A stretch of DNA of 61,594 nucleotides, filler included, from Asterionella formosa (lineage: Eukaryota): NCBI GenBank assembly GCA_002256025.1. It is 4 parts of 4 records of this genome, joined end to end, with 100 filler letters (N's around TTAATTAATTAA, not from the genome) between each part and the next. Parts side by side here need not be neighbours in the genome. Positions count along the whole stretch, not along the records: positions 1 to 15,345 come from NKIB01005490.1; positions 15,446 to 30,777 come from NKIB01005494.1; positions 30,878 to 46,184 come from NKIB01005507.1; positions 46,285 to 61,594 come from NKIB01005511.1. One strand, given 5' to 3'. Positions 754 through 61,594 of the stretch are shown here, one piece after another. The notes beneath the pieces were generated by a model, which worked only from the letters and a program-made list of their open reading frames with translations, searched no databases and had not been told where the DNA came from. The position numbers were made by a program, and so were the translations under genes. Positions within the stretch are counted from its first letter, which is position 1; every line of letters begins with the position of its first letter.

Positions 754-1316
754 ATAGTTACTGTGGGAATCAGCAATAGTTATGAATCGGTATCTACGTA
801 TTCATAGAAGAAGACGCCGTTAATTGACAAGACCACCTTGTACCTGGTAACTTAACCCCTTGGTTTTTACCTGTACTCATATTTTAAAGTTTCATCATAA
901 GCCATTGACCTGCTTTGCTTTTAATTTGAAATATGAGCGAAGATTCCTATTTATGCTCTACCGAAGGTGGTTTTCACAAACTGGTACCAGGTACCTGGTC
1001 CGAAAAGTATGTGATGGTCGACGCTCGGTTACTATACACGGTATAGTATTTTCACAATATTAAGTTCTTCGTTGGTAATTTTAGCTAAGTAAAATCGTAC
1101 TCCGGAGTACAGGAGTAACTACATAAGCCCCGGGCTATCAGGGCGCAGCAGCATCAAAATGTATGAATGACAAAGGCGAGCAATCATGGGAACTGAAAAT
1201 CACATACCTATATAATTATTGAAAGTGTATGATATGGTTGTTGGTGTGGTGATGCTAACAGAACAAAAGCAACAACACCAATCCAATCCAACCCTCGTGA
1301 CCACTGCTAGCTAATC

Positions 1317-2666
1317 ATGGACTCAATGAGTTGCGTACTGACATCGGCAGAAGCCGAACAAGCAATTCAATCATTGCAACGAATCATCCAGTACCCCACT
1401 GTCTCCGCCACTGCCGCAGAATCAGGCGCCTACAAGGAGTGCGCCATGTACATTCTCCAACAACTGGAAGGACTCGAGTGCTTGACAAACGTTCATTTAC
1501 TCCTTGAAGCGCCTGAACATTCACCTGTCGTACTGGCTTGTTGGAAGGGCAAGGACGAGACTCTTCCAATCATTCTACTGAATTCGCACTACGATGTGGT
1601 CCCAGCAGCGCAAGTGGACTGGACTGTCCCGGCCTTTGAGGGACTCAGGAAAGATGGAAACATTTACGGCCGGGGGGCCCAGGATATGAAGTGCGTATGT
1701 GTACAATACATCGAAGCCATTCGAAAATTGGCATCGACAGGGTTTACACCAGAACGAAGTATCTGGCTGTCCTTTGTGCCGGATGAAGAAGTTGGGGGAT
1801 CCGGCATGGCGGCGTTGCTGGACTCGGATTTATACAAGAATCAGTGGCCAAACATTGCTCTCGCATTAGATGAAGGACTGGCTTCGACTGACAATGTATT
1901 TTCTGTCTTTTACGGGGAGCGATTGCCGTGGTGGATTGATGTGACGGCAACTGGAAACACGGGACATGGTAGTCGCTTTATAGAGAATACAGCCATTGAA
2001 CAGTTGATCGATCTTGCCAACAAGGCTCTAGCATTCAGAGAAGGGCAAAGACTTGCGTTGCATGATGGACAGAAGCATCACAATTGCGCTCATGCGGTAG
2101 CGGCGAAAAAGGTTTTGGGAGATGTCACTTCGTTGAACATTACCACCCTGCAAGCCGGTGTGCGAGTTGCAGATACGTATGCGTATAATTGTGTTCCTCC
2201 CGTTGCCAAGTGCTCTTTGGACATTCGGATTTCTCCGCATGTGCCACCTCATGAGATAAAGGACATGTTGGATGGGTGGTGCAAGGAATGTTCCAAAACA
2301 GACGATCACAAACTATCTTGGGATTACATTGGTCATAGGAATGATTTGCAATGTCACGCAACTACCTCCATTGATGCTGATGTCAATCCATGGTATTCAA
2401 TTTTTTGTGAATCCTTAAAGAAGCAGGGTATGGAATTGAACCCGCAAGTCTTTCCTGCTGCCACGGACTCAAGATTTCTGCGAGTTCTTGGCATTCGGGC
2501 ATTTGGGTTTTCTCCCATGAGGAATTGTGAAATCATGCTGCACGAGAATGACGAGTATATTCCGGAACGAGTTTTTGTAGAAGGTGTGGAAGTGTATGTT
2601 GGTATCATTCAATCCTTGGGGAGCCAGACAGAAATAGAGGTGGATAGAATGTCCAAAAAAAAGTGA
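1317..2666 (+). CDS. ACY1: Aminoacylase-1 (peptidase M20A)
   Basis: Motifs LNSHYDVVP, YGRGAQDMK, FVPDEEVGG, ALDEG, FPAATDSRFLR and LHENDE in a single 449-aa ORF. Confidence 0.93.
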   Translation: MDSMSCVLTSAEAEQAIQSLQRIIQYPTVSATAAESGAYKECAMYILQQLEGLECLTNVHLLLEAPEHSPVVLACWKGKDETLPIILLNSHYDVVPAAQVDWTVPAFEGLRKDGNIYGRGAQDMKCVCVQYIEAIRKLASTGFTPERSIWLSFVPDEEVGGSGMAALLDSDLYKNQWPNIALALDEGLASTDNVFSVFYGERLPWWIDVTATGNTGHGSRFIENTAIEQLIDLANKALAFREGQRLALHDGQKHHNCAHAVAAKKVLGDVTSLNITTLQAGVRVADTYAYNCVPPVAKCSLDIRISPHVPPHEIKDMLDGWCKECSKTDDHKLSWDYIGHRNDLQCHATTSIDADVNPWYSIFCESLKKQGMELNPQVFPAATDSRFLRVLGIRAFGFSPMRNCEIMLHENDEYIPERVFVEGVEVYVGIIQSLGSQTEIEVDRMSKKK

Positions 2667-2744
2667 GGTTTGTACAGAGTAGAGGGAATAAAACTTATCA
2701 TTAATTGAACAGATCTTTTCATGCTTTATCCTTATAGGATACTT

Positions 2745-4312: not shown

Positions 4313-4547
4313 ACAAGTAAGGTGCACGTCGGCACTTGAATTCCTAATTATAATGGTGCTGAGTAAATTTCTGATTTTCAGTTCGTCGCGACAGTATCAG
4401 GATGATGTGCGTACCATCTATATTGGAATTGTCTACATGAATGAATTTTGAAAAAACATCAAAGGGCCTTCGTGACCGAAACAATTGTTACGGTTCACTC
4501 TCCTGCTTGAGTTTTTTACTATCTACCGGTGGTGGTAGGGGTCGAAA

Positions 4548-5201
4548 ACCAGTACCCTGGTACCCGGTACCTGGTAAATGCTGGTCGTTCTTGGAATACC
4601 ATCACATGGAAGGTCCGGTAAAACACAGTTTTTACTTAAGAACAGACTAAGCTAAATATCTCGATTACCGGACCTTCCTGTGGTATCAGGTGCCTTGTAG
4701 GAGAACTGGTAGACTACTTGTACCAGGTACCAGGTACCTGGTACCAACAAGCCAATAGCAGCCATGACTTCTATATCCACAACTTACACACAATCGCACA
4801 GTACCAGGTAACGATTTCTGAGCAAGCAGTACCTGGTACCAGGAACCATGTACCAGTACCGTATGTCGCACCAGTATCGGTGTTACAGTCCGGTTACCAG
4901 GGGGTACCTGATCCCGCCTTGGATTGGCCTACTGCACAGCATGGATTGAAATTCCAATTTGATAGCTACAGGTAGACCAATCAGATTGTCGAGCACGCCA
5001 TCCAGAGCTGAAGCAGCCAACGACAAAGACCGACACACTCGCCGACGAGGTCAACGAAGCAACTCCACACAAGTTCAGGCTACCACGGTAACAGCTCTGT
5101 GTGGAAATGGGTGTAGGAGCAGTACATAAAGCAAATTACCTGGTACCTGGTACCGCAACTTGCCGGTATGTACCTGTTACCTGGTACCACTGGTACCGGT
5201 A
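4548..5201. repeat. Densest example of the intergenic TACC(A/T)GG / TACCGG micro-repeat clusters
   Basis: gtaccaggtaccaggtacctggtacc at 4720-4745 and tacctggtacctggtacc at 5137-5154. About 20 similar clusters occur elsewhere in intergenic DNA. Confidence 0.85.
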
Positions 5202-5508
5202 TGTTGATCATCACGAGAAATTGTTCGTGGCTGCTTGTCTGACCATTGGCTGTGCATAAATATCAAACAGGAACAGACAAGGGATGAGTTTTCCATTGTT
5301 ACGAGGAAATTTCGTTGGCCAGACAACAAAACACTTTGTTGAGGTTGAGCAAAAAAGATCGGCGAAGAGTAACGAGTCTTCAAATGTGGAAGATTTCTTT
5401 ACCAAAGGCAACGTGAGGTCTACGACAATTCCAGGAACTGTGTGCGTCCTTCTCACTCCGCCAAACAAGGCTTCATTTACCTTTCCTTGTCATCGAAATC
5501 CCTGGACC

Positions 5509-9459: not shown

Positions 9460-9498
9460 GGATAAAAAGTGTCTAGGGACGTTAGTAACCATCATTTA

Positions 9499-10076: not shown

Positions 10077-13000
10077 TGTGCTGATCTGGAAACAAAGAAT
10101 TAGTAATTCATGCCTTTATCATGGGGCTCTAATAATGCATCCTGGGTACCGGTATTTGGATCAAACCATAATTAATATGTATGTACTAAAACAAAAATTA
10201 TTTCACTTATCGAATAATTTTTATGTGTTCTAACCAATAACCAATTGTTGTAGGGGGGGGGGGATTGTGATCTTGGAAAGCTTCCATATTCTTCATGATC
10301 ACTTATCACTGGAACACTGCAGATAGGGAAGTTATGTCACATGCATGACAGCAGATTAGTGGAAAGGGGAGAGATAGTATTGTACCACAGAAACAAATAA
10401 TTGATCAGGAAATTCTTCATGAATGATGAACACCTAAAGATTGATGCTGAAGCAAAACTTGGAAATATTGTGACCCCGCCCCTTGTGAACACTCTTTTGA
10501 CCATACTACCTTGATTAACAGCTTGAATGAAGGGGAGTAGCAGAGAACTATTACAACGTATGGTGAACAGGCACAATATGCTGGCAATATGTGTGAACAA
10601 TACATATGTATGTTGAACCTATGGATTTATAGCAGACTGCCAACTAATACTACCAGCAGTAAAACTAACAGGGGTATGAAATTAATATAAAGAGCATGCA
10701 TTGTTAAGAGAATTACATATTTGGTAAACGTTTTTCTCTGTGTCTGGCAATGATTGGGTTTGTCATGATTTGCACTGCAGTTGTTCATACCCTAATTTCA
10801 CTTTCCTTTACAAATATGTTTTGAATTTGTCCTTTCTGTTTGCAAAGTATACTGGTACTTACCGGTATTCTAACATATGCCAATGTATGAAGCAGTATAA
10901 AGCAAGAACCGGTACATACGTCTGCATAGTACTCTGAGTGGGATGAGTAAGTTGCTTCAATTGGCTGAGGAGCTGCATTTAACAATGATATTATTATTTT
11001 ATGTATGATGTAGTATAGCAACCATCCATCTAAGCCGCGAAATACGCCACTTTTCAAGATTTGTTCTATGTAGGAATGTTAATTATGTGGTACTTCACAT
11101 GAATTAATGCTACTCCTCCCATAGAAAGGTTACTTTTAACGGGTTTTTGTGAAGATTTCACAAAAAACTTTGAACTCGAGACTAAATTAGTTGATGTTTC
11201 AAATATTCATTTCAAAGTTCAACTAAGTCCGCTCTTGAGGCTAATTCATTTAAGACATGCATCTTCCTTTGTGAAATAGCAAGGATATTTGTGGTGTCTT
11301 AATTCATGCTACAGTAGTGTCTTAATTCAGCTACAGTTTATGGTTGTGCACTTCACGTAAATAATATTTACTATTATACTGAACATGATTACTTGTCGTG
11401 GTTTCATTTGATGGTTCACAATCATACGGTTATTTCCAAAGCAGGAATAGTTGATGTTACAACTATATATTTTTAAAGTTCAAGATAAATTTTTTAGATG
11501 ATAAATCATTGCGAAAGACAACTCACTACTAATTGTTTGATTGCAATCTGCCCTTATTTGATTGAGAAAAACGGAGCGAAATGGATCTCGAGAAATATCG
11601 CAACATGACTCGTGATGTAAGCAACAGCCAACCATAATGATCACAAAACAGGTACGGAACGAATCATTTAATATTGAGCGAATTTGAAAGGCTAAACTAA
11701 ATATCTATTCGAATTGGTGTGTGTTATCGACTGCAAATCTTCGGAGTACTATTGGGCATGAATTGATGGAGAAAATCGAAGCGATGTGGTTGTCAGCAAC
11801 TGGGTGCATGAAGCATATCAACAATCATCATTACCATCGATATTGTCAGCATCCAATATGAATTCTCTTATTCTTTTACAAAAACTGTATTTCGTATGAA
11901 TTCTAAAGATACAAAATATATGAATAACATACCTGTATTGTGAATATGTCAGAAATGGCATCGTGATGCTGAGTGTGTTGACCTCAGCTAATGAATAGGT
12001 ATGGTATCTCAGACTAGGTACCAGTATACAAGGCCTACATAGGGCTATGATACATACTACCAGTACCAGGTACCAGGTACCTGGTACCTTGGGTCTTTTG
12101 ACCCTGCACTCAGACATACTAGCTAACAAATAGCTATACTTTATGGTACCACCAGGTACTCCTGGCTGGTAGAAAACAGCTCGACGTTGCAAGTGTGAGA
12201 CTGTAGGTTTGCCCTACCAGTATTTCAGTCTTCCCCTTTGTCTTTTTACAATAGGAATTATGCTGTTCGTACTGTGAAACTGTACTCATTTCTACGTGCG
12301 TACTGTGGAACTGTAGGTTGCTTTGCCCTACCAGCATTCCCGTATTCACCTTGTTACAATAGAATATGGCGTTCGTACTACTGTGAATATATTAAGAGTA
12401 ACCATTGGCTGTGTCCTCTCCTTCTTGTCATATTTGTTTTAGGTCACACTTGTACTAGCATCAGAATTTGTCCCGACGAAGTAAGACTGCGCCAGGCTTT
12501 TTTCGTGTAGATTGTAGGTTCTGTTGGTACAAAGATGAAGTCATGGCTGCGCCAGGATTCTTTACCCCCTCTGAATTCATAAAGAAAACATTTTTTTAAA
12601 CACCACTGTGCACAATATGTTTTCAACATTGGCGATGACCCTTAAAACCATCATCCCCCTTATGCTTTTCAGCGCCTCACCATTAACAAATCCTTCATCA
12701 GCCAAGAACTCACATATTGTTTGTTGCAACAACAGAAGGTGGAATGATGTAACATTGAGATTGTAAGCAATCGATGCTTTTAAGGTAAGATTTATTTGCT
12801 AACTAATTTTGCTATCATATCACCAAGTGAAGGATAACTCATACTGATATGCTGTTGTTTTCAAAATTCATTTGACATTTGAACAGGCCTTTTCAGAAAA
12901 GGAGTGTTCTTTGGAAAGCATGAGTGATAGAGGGTGAAATGATACAAAATGGAGACACGCAATGGAGGCCTTTAAGGTAGCTAAGCTCAATCTTCAGTTT

Positions 13001-14009: not shown

Positions 14010-14536
14010 TAAAGAGAAAGGACCAATTGCTTGTATTCCCCTCTAAGTAAAATCAGTCGTGGCTGTGTACATTTGCTCACCTCCAGGGTTAACAGACACC
14101 AGGTTTTGCAGCACCTGGTAATTACCTGTATCTGCGGTCGTTGCTATTTTTGGTTGCAATCAAATTCTTGGGAACTCCTTTTGGCATTCATAATCATACC
14201 GGTACATGTTAAAAAATGATTGTATACTGGTATATTTTTTCAGATGTGAGTAACGCAAGTTATACACAGGTATTAATATTGCTTTCTGTCTTTCTCGGCA
14301 ACCACTTGAAAATGTAATGATTTACCGTAGTATACTTCATTGTCCTGGACCCCCCTGAGGTTGCTGGACCCCCCTGTACATTTTTTTCATGATGGCACCA
14401 AACACCCAATAATTTTCTAGACATACTAGACAAAGTAACGTGTTATAATTCTGATTTTTGTGGCGGAAATTGAATGACGCTACCATTATAAACTACCAGT
14501 AATATCGGTACTACCAATGCATACTACATATTAATC

Positions 14537-14947
14537 ATGTCAACAACAAGATCAGCAACAATCAACAGCCGCCGAGATGGGGAGTTGCTTGGACTGAATG
14601 CTTCCAGCAATGGGCGCTCATGTGAGCAACATGAATGCTGCGGGAAAGCGGTTAAGGCTGATGATGTGATCAGGTTCAAGCTGGCTGTTGTGGAGGATGT
14701 ATTGGGCAAGCCATTGGAGATGATCAAGGCTGTCCTCATCAAGGATGGCACGGAACTTTGCACTGTTGGGTTTCTGGGCAGAGAAGTTGCAGCATTGCCT
14801 TCACAACGGAGCAAGTACATCGACAAGTTTGCGCAGGTGCTAGAACTGTATGATGACAATGAAAATTCTATGATGAGAAAGAAGAGCAAGAGGAATGCCG
14901 GAATGGCTTCATTCCGCTTGATGGAGGATATTCAAAGCCAGGAGTAG
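14537..14947 (+). CDS. 136-aa transposon-associated protein, Cys/His motif plus possible HIRAN-like fold
   Basis: Intact GC-rich ORF in AT-rich surroundings, with GRSCEQHECCG, CTVGFLGREVA and FAQVLELY. Confidence 0.65.
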   Translation: MSTTRSATINSRRDGELLGLNASSNGRSCEQHECCGKAVKADDVIRFKLAVVEDVLGKPLEMIKAVLIKDGTELCTVGFLGREVAALPSQRSKYIDKFAQVLELYDDNENSMMRKKSKRNAGMASFRLMEDIQSQE

Positions 14948-15261
14948 ATTCGATTGTAGCAGTCCTCAATAACGATGTAGAAATGCATTCTATACTATTT
15001 ATTATAATATTGTAGAACAGTCAGTAAATAGACTCCAGAGTCATTTCCTTTAGCATTTATAGTGATTCATGTCAACTGTAGTTCTAGCTACTAGCTTCAA
15101 CACGAAAAATCAAATCGTAAATTACGACTTACTAAGCTGTTTAACATTAACGCTATTGAATTGCTTCTACAAATCAATAATATAACAATAGAGCATGCTT
15201 AAACAGACTATAAATTTATATTTCTAGTCACATGCTACACTTTTTGAATAAAATAGAGTCA

Positions 15262-15345
15262 TCAATCGCTTGCAATGTAACCAACCGCATTCCAAGTGTT
15301 CAAAATTGTTGATTGTGACACCCTCAGCCAAGCTGTCCAAACCCA
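15262..15345 (-). CDS. C-terminal 27 aa of a pogo/Tc5-type (DDE_1) transposase
   Basis: Translates WVWTAWLRVSQSTILNTWNAVGYIASD*, matching the WV..AW..(I/V)....I.N.W...G tail of DDE_1 transposases. Confidence 0.6.
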   Translation of the reverse strand, partial: WVWTAWLRVSQSTILNTWNAVGYIASD

Positions 15346-15445
15346 NNNNNNNNNNNNNNNNNNNNNNNNNNNNNNNNNNNNNNNNNNNNTTAATTAATTA
15401 ANNNNNNNNNNNNNNNNNNNNNNNNNNNNNNNNNNNNNNNNNNNN
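15346..15445. other. Artificial contig linker (N44-TTAATTAATTAA-N44)
   Basis: Six-frame-stop spacer embedded in Ns. Confidence 0.97.
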
Positions 15446-17925: not shown

Positions 17926-18539
17926 GATTTCACCAAGCTCACATCATTTGAGCTGAAGAAAAAACTGAGATAAGTTAACAGGTCGGAAAACTTTTGAGCA
18001 TCAACTTCATGACAACGTGGTGAACCGGGGTGTAGCTGGAAATAAAATACAGTAATATCTAGATGCTTGTCCAGAGCATGTTCAGCACGATCTTAAAGCC
18101 ATCATGCATGGGAACGATGGGGTGGAGTACGGTACCTGGTACAGTTTGTACGCTGCTACCGGTTGCAGCAAATCGTGCTGAAACTTTTAAGTTGGCCGCA
18201 AGTTGCAGGTAGAACCTTGTACCTGCTATGTCGTGGAATTAAAAAAACTACACAGGTTTTTCCCGGCCGAGAAATCAGCATGCAAGGCACGCTCAGGTTG
18301 CACACCACGTACGCACCGGGTACATATCCGGGAAGCACGTACCGGTAGTACCATTGTACCGTACAATACATAGAAGGTACCAGGCACTGTTACCTGGTAG
18401 TCACAAAGCATTAATAATTTTATCATAAAGCAAAAAAAATTTACAATAACAAGGAAAGAGCGAGAACGTCGTCACATCGTCGCGATTTCCATACTATAGT
18501 CACTATAGAAACAATTGAACGATATCAACATATTTTACA

Positions 18540-22700: not shown

Positions 22701-23429
22701 GTTACCACCAAGCAAAGGCGGACCCTAAAACCGTCACGACAACAATTTTTTGCAGCAAATTACGGAAATTTCAGCCAACCAAAAATAGAAATCTCATACG
22801 CAACTGGGAGGAATAAATTGATTTCTTTCATGTGTTTCAATACTATGTTTTTTCACTTATGTGGTACCTGGTACCAAGTAGGTGGTACCTGGAGGTCACT
22901 CATCTTTTTTACCGGTAACTGGCACTGGTACCAGGTAGTGGCATATTGTTAGACAGCAGAGGTAGAGCGAGCGTCGTGGTGATGACGGAGCCAAGAAAGA
23001 GAATTCTGTGAAAATACGGGCACGTGCGGAGCCCTATTTATGGATATTTTTAGTCAACACATGCAATTAGATACCGTACGGACAACAGGTAATGAAAAAT
23101 GTCGACATAGCTACTACACAAGACATACCGGTGTACAGGTAACTGCCGCTGGACAATTCAGACTACCGGTAGTAGTTTACATAGATAAATGAATTACATA
23201 TACCGGTATATGTAATAACATATGATAAAGGCGAGCAGCCTTTTCCCAACTCTCCTGATTGGCGTCGCATTACCTGGTACCGGTATGTTTGATGATATCA
23301 CGGACTACCAGGTCCTGGGTATTAGCAGGTATACTGGAAGGAGCGATAATTTCCTCTGTTGACGTTTTCTTTGTCGCCCGTCCATAAAGTAAACCCGTCC
23401 ATAAAGTAAACCCTTCCATTGAGCACTCG

Positions 23430-25956: not shown

Positions 25957-26454
25957 GTTTAATAAGTCAATATGGTTTAAATGAGGAAAAATAGTTTTAA
26001 TGAGAAGAGTTACTGGTACCGATATATCGATCGATTCGTTGTCAACGACCCGAATAAATAGAAAAAGGGGCGCTCAAGTGTACCAAGTTGATGTTTGTTG
26101 CCAGTATAGACTACTCCGGTTATTTGTGACGGAACGAGCGATGCGTCGAGTCACCACAGTCGATTTGAACCAGTGAGCATGATGCATGAGAGAAGCAGTA
26201 CATATTCTACCCAAACAATTTTGTAGAAATGATTGATGCTTCGCTTATTTAGGTGGAGCTGATGCACAGGTATACTAATTACCGGTATGTTGAAACTGTG
26301 ATATATCATATGTAGGGTTCTCGTCGTGTGAAGCAACGTCATCGACCTTGTGATACATTGGTATACCGCTGTATATGTAGGAACTGGGATTCCGTACCAG
26401 GTACCGGTAATGTAGACTACAAAGAATGGGATATACGTATGCTGGAGGTACGCA

Positions 26455-26679
26455 CCTGCGCAAGTTGCTCTAATTTTGTTCAACTAAAGCTTTAGCTGTC
26501 TTTATCCAAGATTAAATCGTTGATCTAAGCAAAATGACCGCAACTTGCCTGGAGGTATATAAGTGTAGTGCCGGTACCTGGTACCAGGTACCAGAGCAAG
26601 TTGCGGTCATTTTGTTTATAGAAACAATTCAATATCGGATAAAGTAAGCTAAAGTTTTAGTTTGGCACAATTGCACAGG
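26455..26679. mobile_element. Fold-back MITE-like element with CCTG...CAGG ends
   Basis: Perfect 19-bp inverted repeat (26530-26548 / 26596-26614) extended by imperfect arms (26481-26548 / 26596-26664). Right end is CAGG|TA. Confidence 0.6.
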
Positions 26680-27270
26680 TACCATGGCAGACCACGTCCC
26701 GGCATTGAACAAGTTTATGATCATGAATGATATCACGGCTGGTGTGTACCAGGTGTACCAGTTACCAGGTACATACAAATAAATCATTCAGCTTTCTGCA
26801 TTCATTCGTTCATTCGTCACTCATATGTAGCTGCATACGTGTTTACGATGACATCATCGCAATGTGTATGTGTGACGACTTCTTACTGTATGTGTGTTTT
26901 CCGTCTAACGTACCTGGTACAGGGTACCAGGTACCCTGGTACCGGTAGTCCAACCAACGCTTCGTCACAGTATGTAATGTGGTTCTGCCTGTCTGGGTTT
27001 GTTATCCAGTTTTTACCTTTCTTGTGTTTCTTCTTGTGGTTCGCTATGTATATAAATAGTGATTAAAAACTGTAGACTAGTCTACTTTACCAGGTCAAGG
27101 TACCGTGGTATATACGACTCCAAGTTATTAAATTTATTACATTACTATCACAGGCTGGCCAACGAATAAGAATACCGGTAGATATTCCAGCGAATTATTG
27201 TGACACTCTTTCGCTGTCTTATTTATGGCGGTGGTCTCGGTGAACACGATAACTTCCCGTCCACAGCCCC

Positions 27271-30777: not shown

Positions 30778-30877
30778 NNNNNNNNNNNNNNNNNNNNNNN
30801 NNNNNNNNNNNNNNNNNNNNNTTAATTAATTAANNNNNNNNNNNNNNNNNNNNNNNNNNNNNNNNNNNNNNNNNNNN
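30778..30877. other. Artificial contig linker
   Basis: N..TTAATTAATTAA..N. Confidence 0.97.
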
Positions 30878-32149: not shown

Positions 32150-32701
32150 TTTCGTTGTGGTCGTGTTTGTAATTCTTCAGTCTCTACTACCGGTCGTTGA
32201 ATTCTACATGCAAGCTCCACATTCATTAAGTCATCATCACTACCGGTATACCGGAACTTTTGTCGATCATGCATTCCGGTATATGTTTGTATGCACTAAC
32301 GGTACATTATATACCATACCAGGGTACCTGTACCTGGTACTGGTACCAGTGAAGAACTCCTATGACCCACTGAGTTCTCCCATTCGTTTGATTAGTTCGA
32401 CTAAACCTTGTCCATGCCTTGCGAGAATCAAACTTCCAGCAAGTTGCGGAAATTTTGCTTCTAGTGCTACCTACTTCGTCGTCCCGGCAATATGGTGATT
32501 CCACTTTCAAGTTGATGCATGTGTATCTCTTTGACGGCCGTTTGATTAATCAACCAGCCGGCTTGTTGTTCTGAATTATATCTAGAATGATTTTATTTTA
32601 AGCCTAAAATATTGAGACAAATCTATTTTGCTTATTCTGCCATTTGCTTCCATTGATTTTGCTTAAAGTAGGACCATTTTGCTTAAAGTAGGTTTACTTA
32701 A

Positions 32702-33880
32702 GGTTGCTGCATTTGAAACCCTAGGCAAAAATTAAAATAATGCTTAGGGTTGCCAAAATTCCCTAAAATTAAGCTATATTTGAATGACGTGATTCCATTT
32801 GAAATATTTAAATCACTGGAAATTTGCAATTACATACATAGATTCCTTTTCGAAATTGCTAAATATATATATAAACACCCTTAGTAGTCGCTGTATGTAT
32901 ATATACCCTAGAAATACGATCAACATACATGCATGGACACTCTATACTCCGATTAAAGATTTTATATGCTATGCATTGAATCCGTTCATATATGTATTTA
33001 TATTCTACATGGCTTAATGTGCATATACCAGTACTACAATCAATACCCTGATCGACGACTATGTGTCATGTATATGACCTGGCGGCTCGGCAAATATTTG
33101 AAAATGCACTCAAGGAGCGGTACACGTATGTCCAATGATGATCATCTACTGGTACCCGTTGTGAATATAGCACCGGACTGTCAGTACACCCAAGAAAATG
33201 TTACATGTTTATCCAATATGGCCGGTGTGGGGTTGCAAGACCTCGCAAACCAGGCCAATCAAACAGAGGATTGAACGTCACGCTCACCAATCATATAATA
33301 TATGTGGAAGTGGGTACTTACAATGATATTTTTCGGACAGGAGATTTGAGGACTAAATATTCCGGCACACGACTACCATTCCAATGATGACGTTTCGGCA
33401 CTTAATAATTCTGATTCCGATATTTTGGCGACCGTAGAAACGGCCGATTTTGTCGAGTTTTTGGACGACGATAGCTAAACATTGGCTGGGTCTGACGGCG
33501 ATTTAGATACATAGGTAACTTTCAAATAGCATCAGTATATAACTTCTGACAAGAAACTGCAGAAAGGAACTTCTTTTTTTACTATGCCAAATAAACAGAT
33601 TTCCCCCGAATTTTCGAGTCGTTTTAGCATAGCTAAAAAACCGAAGTTCCTTTCTGCAGTTTCTGACCAGATCCTATATACTGACGATATATTGAGTGAA
33701 CCTACACCCCTATTTTGTCCGAAGACTGTATTTTATCACATGGAAAGTGTGTGTATTGGTGAAAGCTCCGTTTAGCGTTATACATTTTTAATTTATATGT
33801 GAAAAGTAGGTGTTTGATAAGTCTGACTGAATATTATTTTCTGAACCCTACCTCGAGCTAGGGGTTCAAATGCAGCAACT
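32702..33880 (+). mobile_element. Non-autonomous Kolobok-like element A1 (internal-deletion derivative)
   Basis: TTAA|GGTTGCTGCATTTGAAACCCTAG ... CTAGGGGTTCAAATGCAGCAACT|TTAA. Its 3' part is homologous to 43041-43720. Confidence 0.88.
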
Positions 33881-33914
33881 TTAAAGTAGTTTTGCTTAAA
33901 GTAGGTTTGCTTAA

Positions 33915-34326
33915 GGTTCCTGAATTTGATCCCCTAACTCGAGGTAGGGTTTAAAAAAAATAATATTGAGTCAGAGTAGTCAAACCCACACTTCTTACGA
34001 GAAAAACGTAAATGTCTATCGCTAAACGGAGCTTTCACCAATATACACCCTTTCCATATGCTTAGATACAGTCTTCTGACAAATTAGGGGTATAGATCAA
34101 CGCTGTATATCGTCAGGATATAGGATCTGGCGAGAAACTGTTAATGTATATACTTATTGAATTCGAAAAGGAATCTGTGTATGTACGCGCAAATTTCCAG
34201 TGATTTAAATATTTCAAATGGAATCACGTCATTCAAAATTAACTCATAAAAATTCTTAGTTCCAGGGAATTTCGGCAACCCTAAGAAATATTTTAATTTT
34301 TGCCAAGGGGTTCAAATGCAAGAACC
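33915..34326 (-). mobile_element. Non-autonomous Kolobok-like element A2 (412 bp, opposite orientation to A1)
   Basis: TTAA|GGTTCCTGAATTTGATCCCCTA ... GGGGTTCAAATGCAAGAACC|TTAA. Confidence 0.88.
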
Positions 34327-34849
34327 TTAAAGTAGTTTTGCTTAAAGTAGTTTTGCTTAAAGTAGCAGTTTTGCTTAATGTGTGATGTCACCATTTCATC
34401 CCTTCACTGCCATCACACCCACCTACTACTGGTACCTGTCGTAATATAATCATATTATACCGGCAAACACAAAGACAGGTAAGAGTTAGTATTATAGACG
34501 AAGGAAACAGGGGATGTGCACGAAGCCTGCATTGAAACCTCAAAAAACAGGAAAGATCGGAATACAGGCAGGCTGAGGAAAATTGAGCAACCACTGGAGT
34601 CAATTAAAAAATACCTACCAAAAATTGAAGATGAAGTTCGAAAGCAAGCTAGCGACATGTAAACCACGCAAGAAGAAGGTCATGGAAGTGTCGATCTGCC
34701 AGAGAACAACCATGCCGAGGGTTCAAGGCAGAAAGCTCACAATTCTGCGAATTAGCTTACGACAAACGCAAATCGTTGATCACCAAGCCTTGCAAATTTA
34801 TAGTCTTTAGATAAAAATTCACCCACCCGGACAGCCACCCACGGCTAAA

Positions 34850-35834: not shown

Positions 35835-38089
35835 CTCGAGATTTCTTCTGATGAAGACAACCTTACAGAAGCCCACAACCGTTTGTCTAGAATGGTGATA
35901 GGAAAGAAGTGATACTAGATAAGAAATGATGATATTAACTTTCTTTCATTCATTACTATTAGGAATTGCATTCATTGATTCATTGCTAGCGGAACTTTTA
36001 GCTGGCTACAATAATTGTTTGGACACCAGCTCTACTGATGAAACTCTCAGGCCATTTTCGTCTATCAACAACCATGACGATGAGGATGGGATGTCAAATG
36101 ATTTGGGTTTACAGCATCTGGAATCTTCTATGCTCAATCCTGATAAACAAAAAGAAAATGACAAACATGGGCAGGGTGGAAAGAGTCAACATGAGGTCAT
36201 CAAGAATGGTGCAAGTATTTCAACTTACAGTTTCAACCCTGCTGCATTGGAACACTATGTACCCATCCGAAACACGAAGAACAAGAGAAAACGAAAGGAG
36301 GAAAAAATTGGTGGTCGCAGAATGTGGTGGCAATATACAACGATACAGCTGTCGAAGAACAGGCTTCCATCAAATGCGTTCGCGGCAGTGACATCAGTTA
36401 AAGCGGTAAACGTACCAATGCCAACAACACAAATGTTACAAATACCACAACTTAGAAGTTGCGATGATGTAGGGATACCAGAATAGAAAGCCGAAGTCTC
36501 AAATTGCAATACTGGTACCATAGCCAGTAAATTACTTTCCTTCTCTATTAGTGAGGCAGGCAGCTATACTGGTATGTACATATGAAAGAAGGTTCACCGT
36601 TATACCGGTAGGTATGTTTGTCTACCGGTACATAGTTTTAGCAGCCAGAATATGAATTAAGGACTTCTACCGGTTTAAAAAAATATTGCTTAAAGTACCG
36701 GTAGTTTTGCTTAAGGTTCCTGCATTTCAACCCTAGTTTAGAGGTAGGGTTAAAAATATAATATTGAGTCAGAGTACTCAAACACACACTTCTTACAAGT
36801 AAAACATAAATGTACATCGCTAAACGGAGCTTTCACCAATACACACACTTTCCATATGCTTAAATACAGTCATTGACAAAAGTAGGGGTATAGGTCAATG
36901 CTATATATTGTCAGGATATAGGATCTGGCGAGAAACTGTTATGAATCACCTCTTTACATGACGTGTCAATATGTGTCTGTGTCTGTTTGTCTGACAGTAC
37001 CCATGCATCTTATTTAAATCATCGTTCTTCTATATCAACTTAATCTAATCTCTCTTTTAACAAACACACCTTCCAATCTCCTTTTGAGCTTGTCAGGTTA
37101 GTTATTGGACTCCCCTCCTCCATCGTCTCCTTGTTCATCAACCTCGTCGATCTCTCTCGTCCCCTCCTTCACTGCAGGTTATGAGCCCAAGCCGTTTCCT
37201 TGAAAGAAACGAAATTGTTGATTGATAATTCGATCTCACTGTCGGCGCCGATCACAAAATCTCGTTCGCATTCGATTGTTTTCACATCATTCATTTGGCT
37301 GCTACATCTGTCTATCTATAAACTACACTACACAGCAGAAGTAGACAAGTGTATTGAGTAATCTTTATCAAAAGAGTGCTATTTGGCATTCAAAGGTTGC
37401 CTGCTTTTCATTCGCAACACATCGTCAACGGCGTTTTTCTTTTTTCGTCGTGAATCGTTTTCATATCTTCACACTATTTTGGCTACGAAAATACTCTACT
37501 GTAAACGATCATCTGTGCACGAGTGTTTCATAAGTACTGTTTACCAGTTACCACAATACTACTCCGGTAGTTCGTTCTCGTTTGAGTCAGATCTTCCGCT
37601 ACGGAATTATTACACTACGTGGTGATCGTCGTTCGTAATCGCAAACCCTACGCACTACTTTGTTGCACTATTGATCTACAGTACATCGATAGTTGCCGGC
37701 TACGGGGTTTATCTAACTGGGTGTCGTGCGGTTCACTTGTGAACCAGAAGCACCGAGGACAATCGACCGTACAGACCTACGTAGTGCAATCTACTTCATT
37801 GCACAACCGAATCGCCGATCGTCTCATCCACAGCACCATCCACGTACAGTAAGCATACCAAGCTTCCGTACAGTGACAGGCTACACTACCGTACTTACTT
37901 AATTACCGGTATTACTGCGTACAAGGTACCAGGTACATATTCCGCCGTACCAGCTGTACCGGTACTCGAGACTTCCTCAAGTACTCCGAAGCTCCGAAGT
38001 ATCAGAGTACCTGTTACATACTCCGTACCAGGTACCAGGTAGTAGTATTTATTGAATATATGAGCTTATTTGTTAATCCTTGTGTGTAA

Positions 38090-40530: not shown

Positions 40531-41423
40531 GCTCAACGATGCTCAACGAGTACCAACGGTGCTTTATTTCCAATCTGGCAGGCTATTGTAATCTCTACAA
40601 TCAACAATGACTTAATAATGTGTCTACAACATCAACTACTACTACGTGTGCTGAATTCTACTGTGTGAATCTTCCTCTTGCATGTATTATTCTTTGCCAG
40701 TTCAGATCAAAGAAATATGTAACATTGCTGAATCTAGACATTCTTCTGCCCCACGCCAAAACACATGCATAAATCAGGAGTACGCCAACAGGTACGCTCA
40801 TGGTTCGTGCTTATACGTTATATTGAATCTACGCTGCTGGATGTAGGCATAATAAAAATCAGTTCGGTATATTTTCTTGGGTGCACTGACAGTCCGGTTC
40901 TATATTCTCGACGGGTGCCAGGGTACCAGGTACCAGTATATGATCATCATTGGACATACGCGTACCGCTCCTTGAGTGCACTTTCAAATATTTGAAGACC
41001 GGCCGGGTCATATAAATGACCCATAGTCGTCGATTGGAGTATAGATTGTAGTACTGGTGTATGCACATGAATCGATGTAGAATCTAAATGTATATACATA
41101 TACATATATTAAACGACTTGAATATGTCGAATGGATTCAATGTATAGCATATAAAATCGTTAATCGGAGTATAGAGTGTCCATGCATACATGTTGATCGT
41201 ATTTTTAGCGTATATATACATGCAGCGACTAGTGTTTATATATATATTTAGCGATTTCGACAAGGAATCTATGTACGTATTCGCAAATTTCCACTGATTT
41301 AAATATTTCAAATGGAATCACATCATTCAAAAATAGCTAATTAAATTCTTAATTCCAGGGAATTTTGGCAACCCTAAGAAATATTTTAATTTTTGCCTAG
41401 GGTTTCAAATGCAGCAACCTTAA

Positions 41424-42605
41424 GGTTGCGGCCCGCAGTTAAACATCACAAGGTCTGTTTCTTTCCAAAATAATTTTATTATGTACATCAATCCACACAG
41501 TACGAGCAACGAAATAAAATAGTTAAAGGTAAAATTAGATTTCACCAATACGACCACTTTGCATATGCTTAGATACAGTCATTGGTCGACTTAGGGGTAT
41601 GATCTATATACAGATATGGTAAGGACCTCATATCTGGAGAGAAGTGGCAGTTATCCCTCTTGGAATCATAACTATCAAAAAAATAGTCAAAAAAAGGGGG
41701 CCATCAAGCTTTTAAAAAATCTACTAGGGATAACTGCCACTTCTCTGCAGAAGTTAAATCCTGACGTTATAGGGTACACGGCTATCTATTTCTTTCTCCA
41801 TGAAACCCCGTAGATGTAGAGTAATCCTCCTCCAAAAAGTCGACCCGATCGGCTTTTTCAACAGTCGCCAAAATATTGGAATTGGAATTTGTATGTGCAA
41901 AACGTTCTCGTATACTTGGAGTCTTGCGTAGGTATGTTTTGCTGAATAATTCTCAGTCCGAAAAGACTCCAGGGTAAGTTCCTGCGTCACTACACATATT
42001 CTGATTGGTTGAATTGAATTTATTCACCTGCTTCAGATTCGCTGAAGTATCCCGGTCTTGTAAAATCTCGCCAGCCACACTTGAACCACACGTATTAGAT
42101 GCACTGAATCCTGGTTGTTGGTAAAATCAGTACCGGTACTACCGGTAGTACATCCTGTCCTCCATCATGATGAACCAATATTGTGTACTACTGGTACCTG
42201 GTGCTCCGAGTACCAGTTACTCCGGTACTGATTTACATACCGGTACATACCATTGTTTGTGGAGTCATATTGTAACTACAAACAGCAACATAGATTCATT
42301 GTCATCGTATTAACAAGAGCCATGAGAATACATGTTGGCATACTCCAAATTTATATATGTGTTTTGGCGTTGAGCAAAATTATGTCTACTACATCCAGCA
42401 ACGTAGAAAAAGAATAAACGTTTAAATATCATAATTTTTTAAATGGAATTCTATCAATCTGGCGCCGATTCCTGTTTAATTCAAAAATTCAAATGGACAC
42501 TTACTTGAATCATGGGAATTCATAGTAGGGAACTCCCTGTTCCACGCCGTTTTTACAACCCTAGCGATATTTTCTCCAAACTAGGGTTAAGCCGGGGCCA
42601 CAACC
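41424..42605 (-). mobile_element. Non-autonomous Kolobok-like element, family B
   Basis: Shares TTAA 41420-41423 with A3. Ends GGTTGCGGCCC ... GGGCCACAACC|TCAA. Carries distant homologues of the family-A 3' region. Confidence 0.75.
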
Positions 42606-42610
42606 TCAAG

Positions 42611-43036
42611 CAGCAAAACATACCTACGCAAGACTCTACGGTAAGTATATGAGAACGTTTTGCACATACAAATTCCAATTCCAATATTTTGGTGACTGTT
42701 GAAAAAGCCGATAGGGTCGACTTTTTGGAGGAGGATTGCTCTACATCTGCGGGGTTCCACAAAGATTAAAGTAGATAGCCGTGTACCCTATAATGTCAGG
42801 AGTTAACTTCTGGAGAGAAACTGCAGTTATGTATCGTAGATTTTTAGAAAAACATCGTAGCCCCTTTTTTGGACTATTTTTGCGATAGTTACAAATCTTC
42901 AATACATAACTGCATTTTCTTTCCAGAAATGATATCCCTGCAATATCTGAAGATAGAACATACCCCAAAACATGTCGACCCATGACTGTATCTAAGCATA
43001 TGCAAAGTGGTGGTATTGGCAAAAGCTAATTTCACC
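42611..43036 (+). mobile_element. Inverted partial copy of the family-B interior (B')
   Basis: Reverse-complement homologue of about 41527-41944, ending ...TTCACC|TTAA directly against A4a. Confidence 0.75.
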
Positions 43037-43040
43037 TTAA

Positions 43041-45020: not shown

Positions 45021-45044
45021 GTCTGCAAATAGAAAACATCTTAA

Positions 45045-46184
45045 GGGCCGTTCTTATCATTTTTTTCGTGTATGTGTATCACGGAATTTGAATTTTTTTG
45101 AAAATGTATCAGCAATGGTAACTCGATTTGAACTGAATTTCATTCATTCCAAAAGTGACACTGTATCACTAATTTGTATCACAGTGTATCATGGAGTAAC
45201 AAGGATTGTCAACGGTGACAGGCCAGCTACAAGCATCTAGATATAAAGGGGGAGTAATATGCATATGCGTAGCTTAAATAAAAATACAACCGGAATAAAA
45301 TAACAAATATCATATCATCTTAGGGTCGTTCTTATTATTTTCGATTTGGTATCATTTTTTTTGAAAAAGTATCATAAAACGGCTACTCGATTTAAACCGA
45401 AAAAATCCATTCTCCACAAAAATAAAAATAAAATTGTATCACCAAAAAGTATCACGAAAATTCAACGGTTACGGGCTGGCTACAAACATGTGCTTTTCCT
45501 TCCTGACTAACAGTACATAATGGTACCAAGCCAGTCCTCAAACCATGCAAGAAATCTACGCGAATTATGTATATGGACTACTATGGTCAATGGTATTTGC
45601 ACAGGTATTTGTTGTAGTCACGTGATCATTTTCGTATTCTATTGCCTAGTACGTGCTGGACGAGTGATAGTAGAATGTACCGGTAGTGACAGCCAAAGCC
45701 AAAGTATTTGCACAGCTTGTATATGTCGTAGTCACGTGATCATTTTCGTATTCTATTGCCTAGTACCTTGTCATGAATTCCCGGACCAGGTAACCAGGTA
45801 CCTGTAATTAGATAGCGGGTATGTCTCTATGCACATGACTCAATCTGTTCAATTTTCGACTCTGTGGTAGTCGTTCTTTGGTGTTGTGGCTGAACATTAC
45901 CACACACGGCCGCTATAATGATTGTATTGTGCTTCTTTGATGCACACCATAACAATTTTTGTGTATATTATCTAGATGTCAATAAAAGTACTGCCCTGCA
46001 GGCGTATTTTCGGTTAATTTATTAGTGACAACGGAAATGATACCCGCGTGAAAACGTCAGTATCACTGATACCGTTTTTGGAGGGGGCAAAAAAAGGTAT
46101 CAATTTTGTATCAATGATACAAAATTGATACCATCAAGTTACCGTTGCTGATACTGTGTTTTGATACCAACCGTCATTTTTTGC
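45045..46184. mobile_element. Unrelated TIR-type insertion with GTATCA/TGATAC subterminal repeats; far end in gap
   Basis: TTAA|GGGCCGTTCTTA at 45045 and a diverged second copy TTA|GGGTCGTTCTTA at 45323. GTATCA repeats on the left, TGATAC repeats at 46030-46170. Confidence 0.55.
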
Positions 46185-46284
46185 NNNNNNNNNNNNNNNN
46201 NNNNNNNNNNNNNNNNNNNNNNNNNNNNTTAATTAATTAANNNNNNNNNNNNNNNNNNNNNNNNNNNNNNNNNNNNNNNNNNNN
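46185..46284. other. Artificial contig linker
   Basis: N..TTAATTAATTAA..N. Confidence 0.97.
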
Positions 46285-46683: not shown

Positions 46684-47456
46684 TACCGTATAGCCCTGTC
46701 GCACACATTACAGACCTTAGATTTCACTCTGTAGTCTAGTATCTTTTTCGTGTAGCCGCCAATACAAAAAGCATGTCCACTTACAGAGTTGTACTTATTC
46801 CCGCTGGAACGCTGCTGCCAGCCCATATCGTAACTAACAGTGAGTCGAGGCATATTCAGTACAGACAAGCGATCCATACCAGTCAGACTGTTCTGTCTTC
46901 ATCCTTCAACCTGGTAAGAATGGATTCACCTTCCAGAAACTTCTCCACCAACTCTTCGACTTCATCCCAATGGCACTGACATTCAGGGCAGTAAAAATCG
47001 CATCATTCGCAGAAGATGCGATCCTCACATCCCTCCACATACGACTCTACAATCAACTGGTCTTGGCAGGTAGGACAACTATCATGACTGTAGTTAAATT
47101 TGTCATTACCATTGTCATCATTTTGATGTGTAATTTCGCTCATGGTTGATTGTTGCTTTTTTTTGGTTTCTTACCAGTAGTCATCAACAATATTTCCATG
47201 CTGCCAGCTCGTCTGACACATATATGTTGATTGTATGATAGGGTATATAAACATTTAGCGATGCAGAATGTATATGTACATATTTATTGAATTCGAAAAG
47301 GAATCTATGTATGTACGCGCAAATTTCCAGTGATTCAAATATTTCAAATGGAATCACGTCATTCAAAATTAACTCATAAAAATTCTTAGTTCCAGGGAAT
47401 TTCGGCAACCCTAAGCATTATTATGATTTATGCCTAGGGGTTCAAATGCAGGAACC
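46684..47456 (-). mobile_element. Left end plus first catalytic motif of a Kolobok-like element (A4b)
   Basis: TVSYDMGWQQRSSGNKYNSVSGHAF...KILDYRVKSKVCNVC (1st D). Terminus ...CTAGGGGTTCAAATGCAGGAACC|TTA(CCGG)TAA. Confidence 0.82.
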
Positions 47457-47671
47457 TTACCGGTAATTTACTATAAATGATTACCGGTATATGCATAACG
47501 GTTTCTACCATTTTAGTATACAAATTGTGATTGATCGGTATATAGCCTAACTACATGATCGTTTCACTTCATGGTTTGCAGCCATTCATTTTCTTTCCCG
47601 TCTTGATCAAAATGGAACCACAGGAATGAAAAGATCCGAAATGGCAACATTCATAAAATATTTGCATCACA

Positions 47672-55608: not shown

Positions 55609-55630
55609 GATGATAATGTCTGTCTGTTGT

Positions 55631-55787: not shown

Positions 55788-56451
55788 GCAGGATCAAAGA
55801 AGATGATGGATTTTGTTTACATTCCTTAAATTTTAGTACCGGAGTCCGAACTAACCACAGCCAAGTCCCTGCATGCCGCGCGCGGCTGGGCTGTTGTTTG
55901 TACTTCTACACGTTATATCAAACTCGTGAACTATGCTGGGAAGTTCTGGTACCGGTACCAACAAAGGACAAATTCTTAGCAGTATATTATACCGGTAGCA
56001 GACTATGAGAGGAAACGAAGCTAAATTTCTCATTCAAAAGATCATTAAGTTAGCTACAGCAACTTGCTCTGGTGGGTATGTGATACTTTACCTCTCCTCT
56101 CCTGTGCGTGGTAGGAGTATGTACAGTGTACAGTGTACAGTATATACCGGTCCTGGTACCGTAAGACGGTACCGGTAATTTGTAGTCGCGGCGAAGGTGT
56201 AACAAAAAGTCTGCCAAAAGCAAGAGTTTATAAAATGGAGCCGAACAACAAATAGAAACTTTGTTGACCTGCTCCATTTCGATTACTATTTCGGGTATTC
56301 CAGATTAACTTGTTGGAACTGCTTCCTATCGATAACTGACTTTTGTATTTTATTGAATTGAATCGAATCGAATGGAATCAAACCGCTTCATTTACCATTA
56401 ACTTTAGCCTTTATACGAATTCGTGTCAGTACACACAGAAACAGAAACAGG

Positions 56452-57873: not shown

Positions 57874-58182
57874 AATTACATTTTCAAACGTAATTCGAAC
57901 CGAGCGTATTCCACGCTCCTGCAGGCGAGACAGATGGTTTGTGATTGTTAGGAATGTTCAAGTTAATGAATTTACGTTGTTAAGTAGAATTTGTCGTGAG
58001 CGGGTTCACCAAGGTTTCGTCTTCGCCAGAAGCGACTATCGGCAGCTAGAGTTAGAAGTGGAACCGGGCAGATCCTAATCGGAACAGCAAAAACGATTAT
58101 TGCAGTGTCAGACTCGATCTGCAACAGGATAAACATACTTTCTCATTAAAACTAATTGTGCAGTATTCCACTAATATGGCTC

Positions 58183-59735: not shown

Positions 59736-60197
59736 GATGAGGCTGGCAAGAAAATAAATTAGCGGTTTGTCGGATTAACAAAATATGTGTCAATGGAATC
59801 ATCAATAATCGGAACAAACCGCTGCTCCATTACGTGTTGTTTCTCTATATATTTTATATGAAAGACTATAATTATTATTACTACTGACAAATTCATTTAT
59901 TTCTACTATTTATCGATATATTATGTAGATTCAGTCACTATCATCATGCAATGGCTGATCATGCATACATACCTGGCATCATGACAAAACGCAGAAAAAT
60001 TACCTTAATTGGAGCTTGCAGTTTGGGGTACCAAGTAACCCCTAATTTGCTAAATGCCATTACCTATTTGCGGTCAAAATAAAATTTTGGGTTAGTACAA
60101 AATAGGTGTCACACTGGTCATGATTCACTGCAATCACGATGCTGGGAACCAGCATTATGGATAGAAAACAGGCTGCGTTGCAAATAAAATTACCTAG

Positions 60198-61427
60198 CTA
60201 GCATAGGAGCCGCTCTTTGGAAAGGATGGCAACACCAGAATCCCTTGAACTACTCCCAACACAAGAATGATTGGACTTATTTTTGTAAATCATAAGCTTG
60301 ATTTGGCAATGGTACAGTTGAGACTCTTCTGCATCATCACACATGGAGTCTAGAATGTCCTGCATGCGACGACGACGACTTTTTGTTCGATTTACAGCAC
60401 TGACGATGCTATTCATGGATGAGACGCCAGTGTCACTCTGGGTGGTGCAAGTAGTAGCCGCTGTTGTTGTATCTGTTGTATCAGGAGGAAGTGAGGATGA
60501 TGATGACTTGAAGCAGGCAATTTCTTGTTGCATTTCAACATGGCCAGATTTGATTGGTTCATTATCGTTGACCAAGTTATTTGAAGAACAGATACGGGAT
60601 GAAGGGGAGGAACACAACAAAGGAAGATGGTCTTGGACCTCTACACAAGAGGTATTTGTTTCCCAACAAGGAAAGACTGGTTCAGAGATGCTCTTTGTTT
60701 CTACGGAACCAATTCCATGAGCATCGAGTTTATTGACAATTATACATGATGGTTCAGAGCAAGCTGGTATTTGCGGTGGAGGCAGGCTAGCTGTGGTTTT
60801 CAGCGCCAGCGAAGCTTGAACCAGAACAGGCACCAAGGAGTTCGTCCACCGCACTCTTGTCAAATCAGGGTTATTGGGAATATCAAAACGTGCAAGATGC
60901 TGATACGAGACTGCCAATGAGTGATTCGCAATCTGTCCTTGATGATTATACTTGCACACAACTTTGATTTCATCTGGATTTTCATGAGGAAACATCAATC
61001 CATGTTCATTGCCTTCGAAATCCGTTTGAGTTGACCCTCGACGAAGAATCGGTCGAGCTTTGGTCAAAAAATAGCAGGAACTTGGGTGCGCTGTATGACG
61101 CGTATGATGAAACTTTGAAAAAAGCGAACAAAGAGAGCCGCGGCGTGGACGTCGGGATGCAATTTTGATATTTTCGCAACAGTTTTCATTCATCGTTTGA
61201 ATTGTTGCTCGCCATGATTTATGAATTGTGTAATACTGACCAAGAAAAACATCTTGTGAATTTAAATTGTGATCTCGTTTATACGAAAAATTGTTTGTGA
61301 GCGCCATCCGATGAACAAACGAGAAGCGATTGTTCAGAAAAATGTGAGACCGCCAGATATTTGCACATCTTGTGATTCGTGTTTTTGTTTCGTGTTGTTT
61401 TTCATACAATGTTACATGTTCGTGCAT
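60198..61427 (-). CDS. Hypothetical protein (up to 409 aa; true start uncertain)
   Basis: Long stop-free ORF with a Ser/Thr-rich C-terminus and no recognisable domain. Confidence 0.45.
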   Translation of the reverse strand: MHEHVTLYEKQHETKTRITRCANIWRSHIFLNNRFSFVHRMALTNNFSYKRDHNLNSQDVFLGQYYTIHKSWRATIQTMNENCCENIKIASRRPRRGSLCSLFSKFHHTRHTAHPSSCYFLTKARPILRRGSTQTDFEGNEHGLMFPHENPDEIKVVCKYNHQGQIANHSLAVSYQHLARFDIPNNPDLTRVRWTNSLVPVLVQASLALKTTASLPPPQIPACSEPSCIIVNKLDAHGIGSVETKSISEPVFPCWETNTSCVEVQDHLPLLCSSPSSRICSSNNLVNDNEPIKSGHVEMQQEIACFKSSSSSLPPDTTDTTTAATTCTTQSDTGVSSMNSIVSAVNRTKSRRRRMQDILDSMCDDAEESQLYHCQIKLMIYKNKSNHSCVGSSSRDSGVAILSKERLLC

Positions 61428-61594
61428 ACCGGTATATAAAAATGAAATTATTAACTCGAGTAATGAGATACTTGGTACCGTGGTACCAGGTACCTGGTAC
61501 CGTTATGTTGAGAATGGGTGGTTCGAAGAAAAATGGGTCCTCCGCCCTCAGTCCATGCACCTCCATTTTGCTCGAGATAGAGGCATATACGGTA

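Follow-up and report, generated by a model that had tools for sequence, protein, structure and literature searches.

The window analysed here, a 61,594-nucleotide stretch of nuclear DNA from the diatom Asterionella formosa (four parts of four records of assembly GCA_002256025.1, joined end to end), carries two abundant short motifs, TACCGGTA and TACCWGGTA. Both arise de novo by duplication of a TA around a fixed filler, CCGG in one class and CCWGG in the other. The motifs are probably stereotyped scars of repair, which cut-and-paste elements would leave at TA sites. Two agents would be involved, and the scars would pile up where the DNA is open, upstream of genes. The CCGG half corresponds to a known mechanism on an unusual scale; the CCWGG half has no maker among the elements found.

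In the window, TACCGGTA occurs 31 times (shuffle mean 0.25, maximum 2) and TACCWGGTA 32 times (shuffle mean 0.42, maximum 3), and among non-coding 8- and 9-mers these two are the most over-represented. With a gap of 150 bp, the 63 sites fall into 28 groups, of which 17 have at least two sites; nine strict head-to-tail arrays of 2–3 units each are included. According to gene models based on open reading frames (ORFs; Pfam support for 11 of the 19 tested), 44 sites are found within the 1-kb 5´ flanks (11.6 kb in all), none in 3.8 kb of 3´-only flanks and 18 in the remaining 22.1 kb of intergenic DNA. Gene bodies (23.9 kb) contain one site, and a single one of the 63 is in coding DNA. A preliminary description of this DNA had placed clusters of TACC(A/T)GG and TACCGG mostly near gene starts and had seen no arrays in exons; the counts agree, and all 14 clusters that it named hold the motifs. 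Its idea of iteration at 5´ regions, each footprint being a new TA target, is also supported.

In the complete 68.4-Mb assembly, 28,528 sites of TACCGGTA were counted (1,718 for a reversed-pattern control), together with 26,886 of TACCWGGTA (control 902). Arithmetic from these counts gives ~0.36 Mb of inserted letters, and the approximately 55,000 intact sites make up ~0.5% of the genome. Single units represent 141 of the 171 arrays in a 262-kb sample that was not selected for the motifs. Genome-wide, the two-unit 20-mers are direct in 1,234 cases and inverted in 952 (44%; 595 T-A and 357 A-T). The direct excess is modest, the three counts are near those of independent addition, and the orientation of the CCWGG units is almost random.

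The evidence for insertion comes from aligned repeat copies. We aligned 38 copies of a TTAA-flanked foldback repeat and surveyed indels of 3–16 bp in all-against-all alignments of 235 sequences (0.90 Mb; L001-L234 plus the window), a sample enriched for repeats already searched for. Events were polarised when more copies carried the empty allele, which was the case for 197 of 591. Among 22 polarised 6-bp insertions, 12 changed TA into TACCGGTA, at 11 distinct sites, and four others were point-mutated TACCGGTA at those 11 sites, three of them via a CpG transition. The four polarised 5-bp insertions included two TA-CGG-TA and one TA-CTG-TA, and one of the five 7-bp insertions was TA-CCTGG-TA, in copy L119. 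The L119 insertion has no template in the neighbouring sequence; at that site there are also copies with CCGG, but the variant found in L119 is shared with an empty copy, L200, instead. Two further +7 events, unpolarised, distinguish L129 from L134. TA-CCWGG-TA insertions number three in all. Two-unit additions comprise one +14 event and one +15 family, multi-unit insertions (+13, +14, +15) being roughly as frequent as single +7 ones, and one +7 event (L115) is purely tandem. For CCGG, CGG and CCTGG events alike, the TA is duplicated around the filler and the empty allele is ancestral. Because these insertions arise de novo at bare TA, slippage is not the main source of the motifs.

TA-duplicating insertion had been deduced in the preliminary description from three internal controls, and the de novo events in repeat copies bear it out; slippage of existing arrays without any such event, the outcome it had named as contrary, is not what the alignments contain. 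Two of the controls read against their paralogues as described: where a foldback copy ends, TTAA has become TTA-CCGG-TAA (47457..47466), and within a 15-mer repeat unit TA has become TA-CCGG-TA (36694..36710). The third (40911..40935, minus strand) is a real +15-bp difference, with CCTGG and CCCTGG units, common to L120 and L127; its empty site, at about 33146-33160, lies inside the TTAA-flanked foldback copy 32698..34330 (A family), which serves as the internal control. Taken alone this one is ambiguous, since the added CCTGGTA and CCCTGGYA are also equal to tandem copies of the adjacent CTGGTAC(C), and tandem duplication is possible too.

The same alignments contain a further scar class, the commonest among small insertions: 88 of 106 polarised 3-bp insertions are XY-(C/G)-XY, with any dinucleotide duplicated (three for the control XY-W-XY), and 36 of 46 polarised 4-bp insertions are XY-GC-XY. 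The foldback repeats are themselves nested, presumably Kolobok-like elements whose inverted arms are long and whose ends read TTAA/(A)GG; they stand at 32698-34330, 36711-36938, 40722-43600 and 47269-47459 in the window, and the genome has more than 1,000 candidate matches.

The CCGG class can be related to resident transposons. A profile search detected 93 matches to PF03184 (DDE_1) in the genome, and six pogo-like families were resolved, of which F1, F2, F4 and F6 end in TA/CCG…CGG/TA and F3 and F5 in TA/CAG. F1 has near-identical copies (99–100% alike), 154 termini within one mismatch and an open frame of 421 amino acids. It combines a DDE_1 transposase (D-D-35-D triad recognised by eye), terminal inverted repeats and TA duplication, the latter verified against empty paralogues. 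The filler of the CCGG and CCG/CGG classes therefore matches terminal bases of resident TA-duplicating elements. Excision of a pogo element would leave two CCG-type overhangs; their joining through a CG overlap would yield TA-CCGG-TA and their full overlap TA-CCG-TA or TA-CGG-TA, while later CpG decay of CCGG scars could produce TA-CTGG-TA. The fillers seen are exactly the predicted CCGG, CCG and CGG. Bases flanking TACCGGTA differ little from background (G on the left in 34%, against 25.5%), and F1 targets are similar (11 of 36). The flanks of F1 ends hold eight motifs in 3.5 kb, a higher density than the genome-wide average of about 0.8 per kb. At two homologous repeat sites all three states (empty, filled by pogo, scar) are present, in separate lineages, a coincidence expected by chance in a family with over 1,000 candidate matches. 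The CCGG class is very probably the product of a known footprint mechanism at unusual scale. A separate locus, L229, has an open frame of 694 amino acids that matches DDE_1 weakly; its termini were not found, and it is possibly a domesticated pogo gene.

The CCWGG class behaves differently. The preliminary description had treated both motifs as one class, a view that does not hold, as they differ in target context and are uncoupled between species. The flanks of TACCTGGTA are G in 80% and C in 81%, with the consensus CWGG-TA…TA-CCWG, and outside strict arrays TACCWGGTA is still followed by C in 71%. The target thus resembles the product, which implies positive feedback. TGG is preferred over AGG in the targets by about 1.6, matching the excess of T-A over A-T pairs, although the two values are not independent data. 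In the 262-kb sample, side products are oriented: CCCTGG/CCAGGG occurs 49 times, against 2 for CCCAGG/CCTGGG and 3 for CCATGG. A separate count of side products gave 56 CCAGGG. If an element is involved, the side products suggest that its ends are CCAG, not CCT. We suggest that TA-CCWGG-TA could be the scar of a second TA-specific element, most simply one ending in CCAG: CAG/CAG overlap with a central mismatch would give CCWGG, and partial joins would give CCAG and CCAGGG, not CCTG or CCTGGG. Such an element would prefer WGG-TA-CCW, so that each scar would become a better target for the next insertion and arrays would grow. CCWGG is a separate, self-reinforcing process, and a footprint is what we lean towards as its origin.

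Other origins of the CCWGG unit were considered and rejected. Decay of CpG in CCSGG is contradicted by a CCWGG:CCSGG ratio of 333:20, against 217:277 for CTGG:CCGG, and by fresh events that are already CCWGG. Longer duplications (GTA, GTAC or GGTACC) do not fit the symmetric flanks and are excluded by L119. The sixth pogo family, followed as a candidate source, turned out to have CCG ends as well.

The CCWGG class is not confined to A. formosa. From 123 metagenome loci with matches, 30 (L286-L355; 156 kb), each selected because it contains an array, were assigned by eye to a second species; many of the matches omitted were high-GC, simple direct repeats. These loci show no real match to the sample of the A. 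formosa genome, and a DUF6824 gene among them suggests another diatom. The fillers are CCAGG (337), CCAG (121), CCAGGG (27), CCGG (15) and CCTG (11), a set that an element ending in CCAG would account for as a whole. Flank bias and upstream position of CCWGG are as in A. formosa; its recurrence almost without TACCGGTA shows that the two classes are uncoupled between species. No viral contigs with arrays were found. Intergenic DNA of the second species is also rich in TA-joined modules (TA-C-TA, TA-GC-TA, TA-GAC-TA, TA-CAG-TA, TA-CTCGAG-TA and TA-CCAGG-TA).

An 88-bp miniature inverted-repeat transposable element (MITE), absent from the preliminary description, is associated with the CCWGG units. 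Of its 1,706 termini in the genome, 655 are preceded by TACCWG. A CWG duplication is exact in 14 of the 36 youngest and 14 of 19 other full copies, in both orientations, and at the one site with empty paralogues, five of these read YAC-CTG-ATA. The MITE uses TACCWGGTA as a target, landing preferentially in TAC-CWG-GTA, and is a consumer, not a maker, of TA duplications; because it duplicates CWG and not TA, it is not the source of CCWGG scars. A 1-bp duplication of W with GC ends would possibly fit these data equally well. For an autonomous partner with DDE and Myb/SANT ORFs, 150 DDE_Tnp_4 matches were scored; the single family examined among them differs from the MITE in its ends and is flanked by TWA, and no partner was found. 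That active PIF/Harbinger-type family (L271-L276) has TWA/GGGTCG ends and dozens of identical DDE_Tnp_4 transposase matches, and related ends occur in the window near 45050 and 45320 (region 45050-45480). In the second species, a 464-bp element with inverted ends (L352:2979-3442) lies inside TAC-CAG-GTA, with the layout of the 88-bp MITE.

It could be argued instead that the MITE moves as a TA/CCWG-core-CWGG/TA unit and itself leaves CCWGG scars. TAC…GTA stands on both sides in 12 of 36 young copies, seven of ten MITE termini are within 150 bp of arrays (8% background), and the similar L352 element sits in the same context. However, whichever way the core is oriented, W is repeated directly on its two sides, almost identical cores carry different outer flanks and the sole empty site found already contains CTG, all of which makes this origin very unlikely. 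The main rival, again for CCWGG and not for CCGG, is templated insertion by microhomology-mediated end joining, to which we give a minor but real chance. If a TA were broken, as when a pogo element is excised, the break would use GGTA/TACC microhomology to prime on an array, either close by or ectopic, copy one or two units and rejoin at TA; arrays would seed arrays with no second element. This scheme is favoured by +7 targets with one flank that reads G, GG or CC, by the near parity of multi-unit and single +7 insertions, by the failure to find an element for CCWGG and by the presence of CCWGG in a repeat-poor second species. Nevertheless, it requires a first seed, it does not obviously yield the oriented side products (CCAGGG and CCAG, not CCTGGG and CCTG), and for TACCGGTA, abundant as it is, copying with such a flank bias is not observed.

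It is hardly credible that the arrays were built by ordinary slippage, as in a microsatellite with units of 6–7 bp. The excess of direct (1,234) over inverted (952) two-unit arrays, the pure tandem +7 in L115 and the duplication reading of the +15 control speak for it. On the other hand, the units are not generally direct copies of adjacent sequence: 44% of the two-unit 20-mers are inverted, single units dominate, and de novo events occur without a local template. Slippage is refuted as the main source and may contribute a minor share. It is also conceivable, if improbable, that the motifs are transcription-factor sites kept by promoter selection, insertion merely supplying them and the 5´ pile-up being due to function, not to open chromatin. 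The upstream enrichment expected of such sites is seen in the one window with ORF-based models, a rough excess of 5´ over 3´ positions recurs in the second species, the motifs are palindromic, and there is a precedent in Phytophthora, where TACCGGTA is reported as a promoter motif of P. infestans (PMC3597505) and TACATGTA is bound by the Myb protein PsMyb37 (PMC11134190). Against selection, the same insertions are found inside copies of transposons, at a wide variety of positions; within repeat clades, point mutations erode the units; and the number and spacing of units vary freely among promoters. This alternative concerns retention, not origin, and can coexist with the scar explanation; the 5´ bias fits open chromatin or selection, and any regulatory role is putative.

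Several results weigh against scars of two transposon-like agents. The approximately 28,500 CCGG sites face some 150 F1 termini and a few hundred element ends, so that scars outnumber elements very strongly; this is the weak point of the CCGG reading. At the two pogo-occupied sites, scar copies are only 84–89% like the filled copies; as they are not the closest kin of these, no scar has been traced to its own parent insertion. For CCWGG, scans for shared termini and inverted repeats in about 0.9 Mb of this genome (1.3%) and 156 kb of the second species yielded only the MITE, the MITE-like L352 and the CCG or CAG ends of pogo elements. No TA element ending in CCA, CCT or CCC appeared in that 0.9 Mb or in the DDE_1 families examined, where the filler matches the terminal bases of no resident element. 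The proposal in the preliminary description of elements ending CC(T/G) therefore stands for resident CCG…CGG ends, and no CCT- or CCA-ended element was seen there. The Tc1/mariner/IS630 profiles PF13358, PF01359, PF13592 and PF01498 gave no matches, with weak or silent controls for two of the four (silent for PF01359); PF02992, likewise with a silent control, gave none either. With 5 nt, the filler is longer than the 2–4 bp stated for Tc1/mariner (PMC7913693, in the part available). In the second species, moreover, arrays are dense while the 156 kb contain almost no repeats. Finally, strain contigs covering 10.9 kb, at about 0.4% divergence from the window, have few indels, and none of those listed, four of them in unique sequence, is of the TA type. 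A 7-letter gap in samples X5 and X8 (implied in X2) lies within 22475-22886, near an array, and was not counted, its exact place being unseen; L291 (99% match) has no indel over 210 bp.

Along the window, motif scan and Pfam place two TACCWGGTA units upstream of a peptidase M20 gene (841..993). Ten units lie in the divergent region between a TBC gene and a light-harvesting gene (4568..5202; arrays 4721-4743 and 5137-5152, the second adjoining a MITE end at 5155), followed by the three-unit array TA-CCAGG-TA-CCAGG-TA-CCTGG-TA (12064..12086). The end of an F2 pogo-like element with its TA/CCG terminus (14325..15345, plus strand; 91-95% like L064/L065) has a 3-bp TA-G-TA insertion in the terminal repeat and stops at an assembly gap. 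Three units precede a VIT1 gene, with a MITE end at 18199 (18133..18399), and seven precede the ORF at 23430 (22865..23286). The divergent region of an aminotransferase and an FAD-oxidoreductase gene (26280..27181) contains ten units (arrays at 26395, 26575 and 26925), a full 88-bp MITE copy of the CWG duplication family with ends CAAG…CTTG (26461..26547) and a partial second copy that starts at 26597, immediately after an array. Further units are located upstream of an armadillo-repeat gene, with a MITE end at 32440 (32241..32339), at 37904..38041 (five, including array 38026-38041), at 42131..42246 (three TACCGGTA), between UGGT-like and DUF6824 genes in divergent orientation (55950..56178) and upstream of an ORF ending near 61217 (61427..61499, with TA-CCGTGG-TA-CCAGG-TA-CCTGG-TA).

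Other features of the window include a coding-like 60-bp tandem repeat (1-500), the armadillo-repeat gene itself, made of 132-bp tandem units and interrupted by an assembly gap (30878-31906), and two non-coding tandem arrays with a unit of ~190 bp (38090-40542). The 100-bp gaps at 15346-15445, 30778-30877 and 46185-46284, each with a 12-letter TTAA filler, are scaffolding artefacts. The light-harvesting and DUF6824 genes suggest a diatom-like alga, and sequencing runs containing this DNA are mostly labelled as freshwater or algae metagenomes.

On this reading, the scars of transposons are by themselves enough to produce an abundant promoter-like motif, and excision scars, though usually deemed rare, can become the leading k-mers of a genome's non-coding DNA. 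Computationally they mimic promoter motifs in every respect (palindromy, 5´ bias and abundance), and motif-discovery results from diatoms and oomycetes can be re-tested directly by a search among strains or repeat copies for indels that duplicate TA. The scars would also preserve a record of transposition that reaches well past what the surviving elements show, and the MITE represents one element family landing on the scars of another process. A more speculative extension, which we think unlikely, is that diatom promoters are largely written by a self-reinforcing, cross-species process: a TA-cutting enzyme, long-lived or domesticated, would add CCWGG and recreate its own target, a second transposon family would have specialised on the scars, and the scars would be the raw material of stramenopile promoter motifs, including the oomycete TACATGTA and TACCGGTA. 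No description of these arrays in diatoms was found in a literature search whose scope mostly left subscription papers outside.

The closest known systems are the excision footprints of Tc1/mariner and pogo elements, described as a duplicated TA plus a few terminal bases, produced via end joining, with 0–4 bp between the duplicated TAs (PMC2874221, PMC7913693 and PMC9976928, in the parts available). The CCGG and CCG fillers fall within this range, and CCWGG (5) and CCCTGG (6) above it. The diatom motifs share with the footprints of ZB, Passer and Sleeping Beauty the TA duplicated around few terminal bases. However, known Tc1/mariner footprints are rare or experimental, whereas the diatom sites number about 55,000, lie 5´ of genes and are arrayed, and CCWGG differs further in its 5-nt filler, strong flank preference and lack of a known source. 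F1–F6 resemble the pogo superfamily in their PF03184 match, terminal inverted repeats and TA duplication, and differ from it in the families with CCG ends. The MITE shares with NuwaI, of the PHIS superfamily, the CWG target duplication by which the latter is defined (PMC4482050, as far as available), confirmed here by one empty site; in contrast, the MITE is non-coding with C…G ends, and NuwaI is reported mainly from animals.

Finally, the Phytophthora motifs are TA-x-TA palindromes, abundant upstream of genes in another stramenopile: TACATGTA (motif-1/M93), likewise reported as a promoter motif (PMC3597505), and M94, identical to the diatom TACCGGTA. A Tc1-footprint origin of TACATGTA was considered, the Tc1 footprint being quoted as taCATGta, and dismissed for abundance and conservation (PMC3520976). 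In Phytophthora a binding protein is known and the available parts of these papers make no mention of insertion evidence, whereas in the diatom insertion is directly seen and protein binding is hypothetical. Abundance does not exclude an insertional origin.

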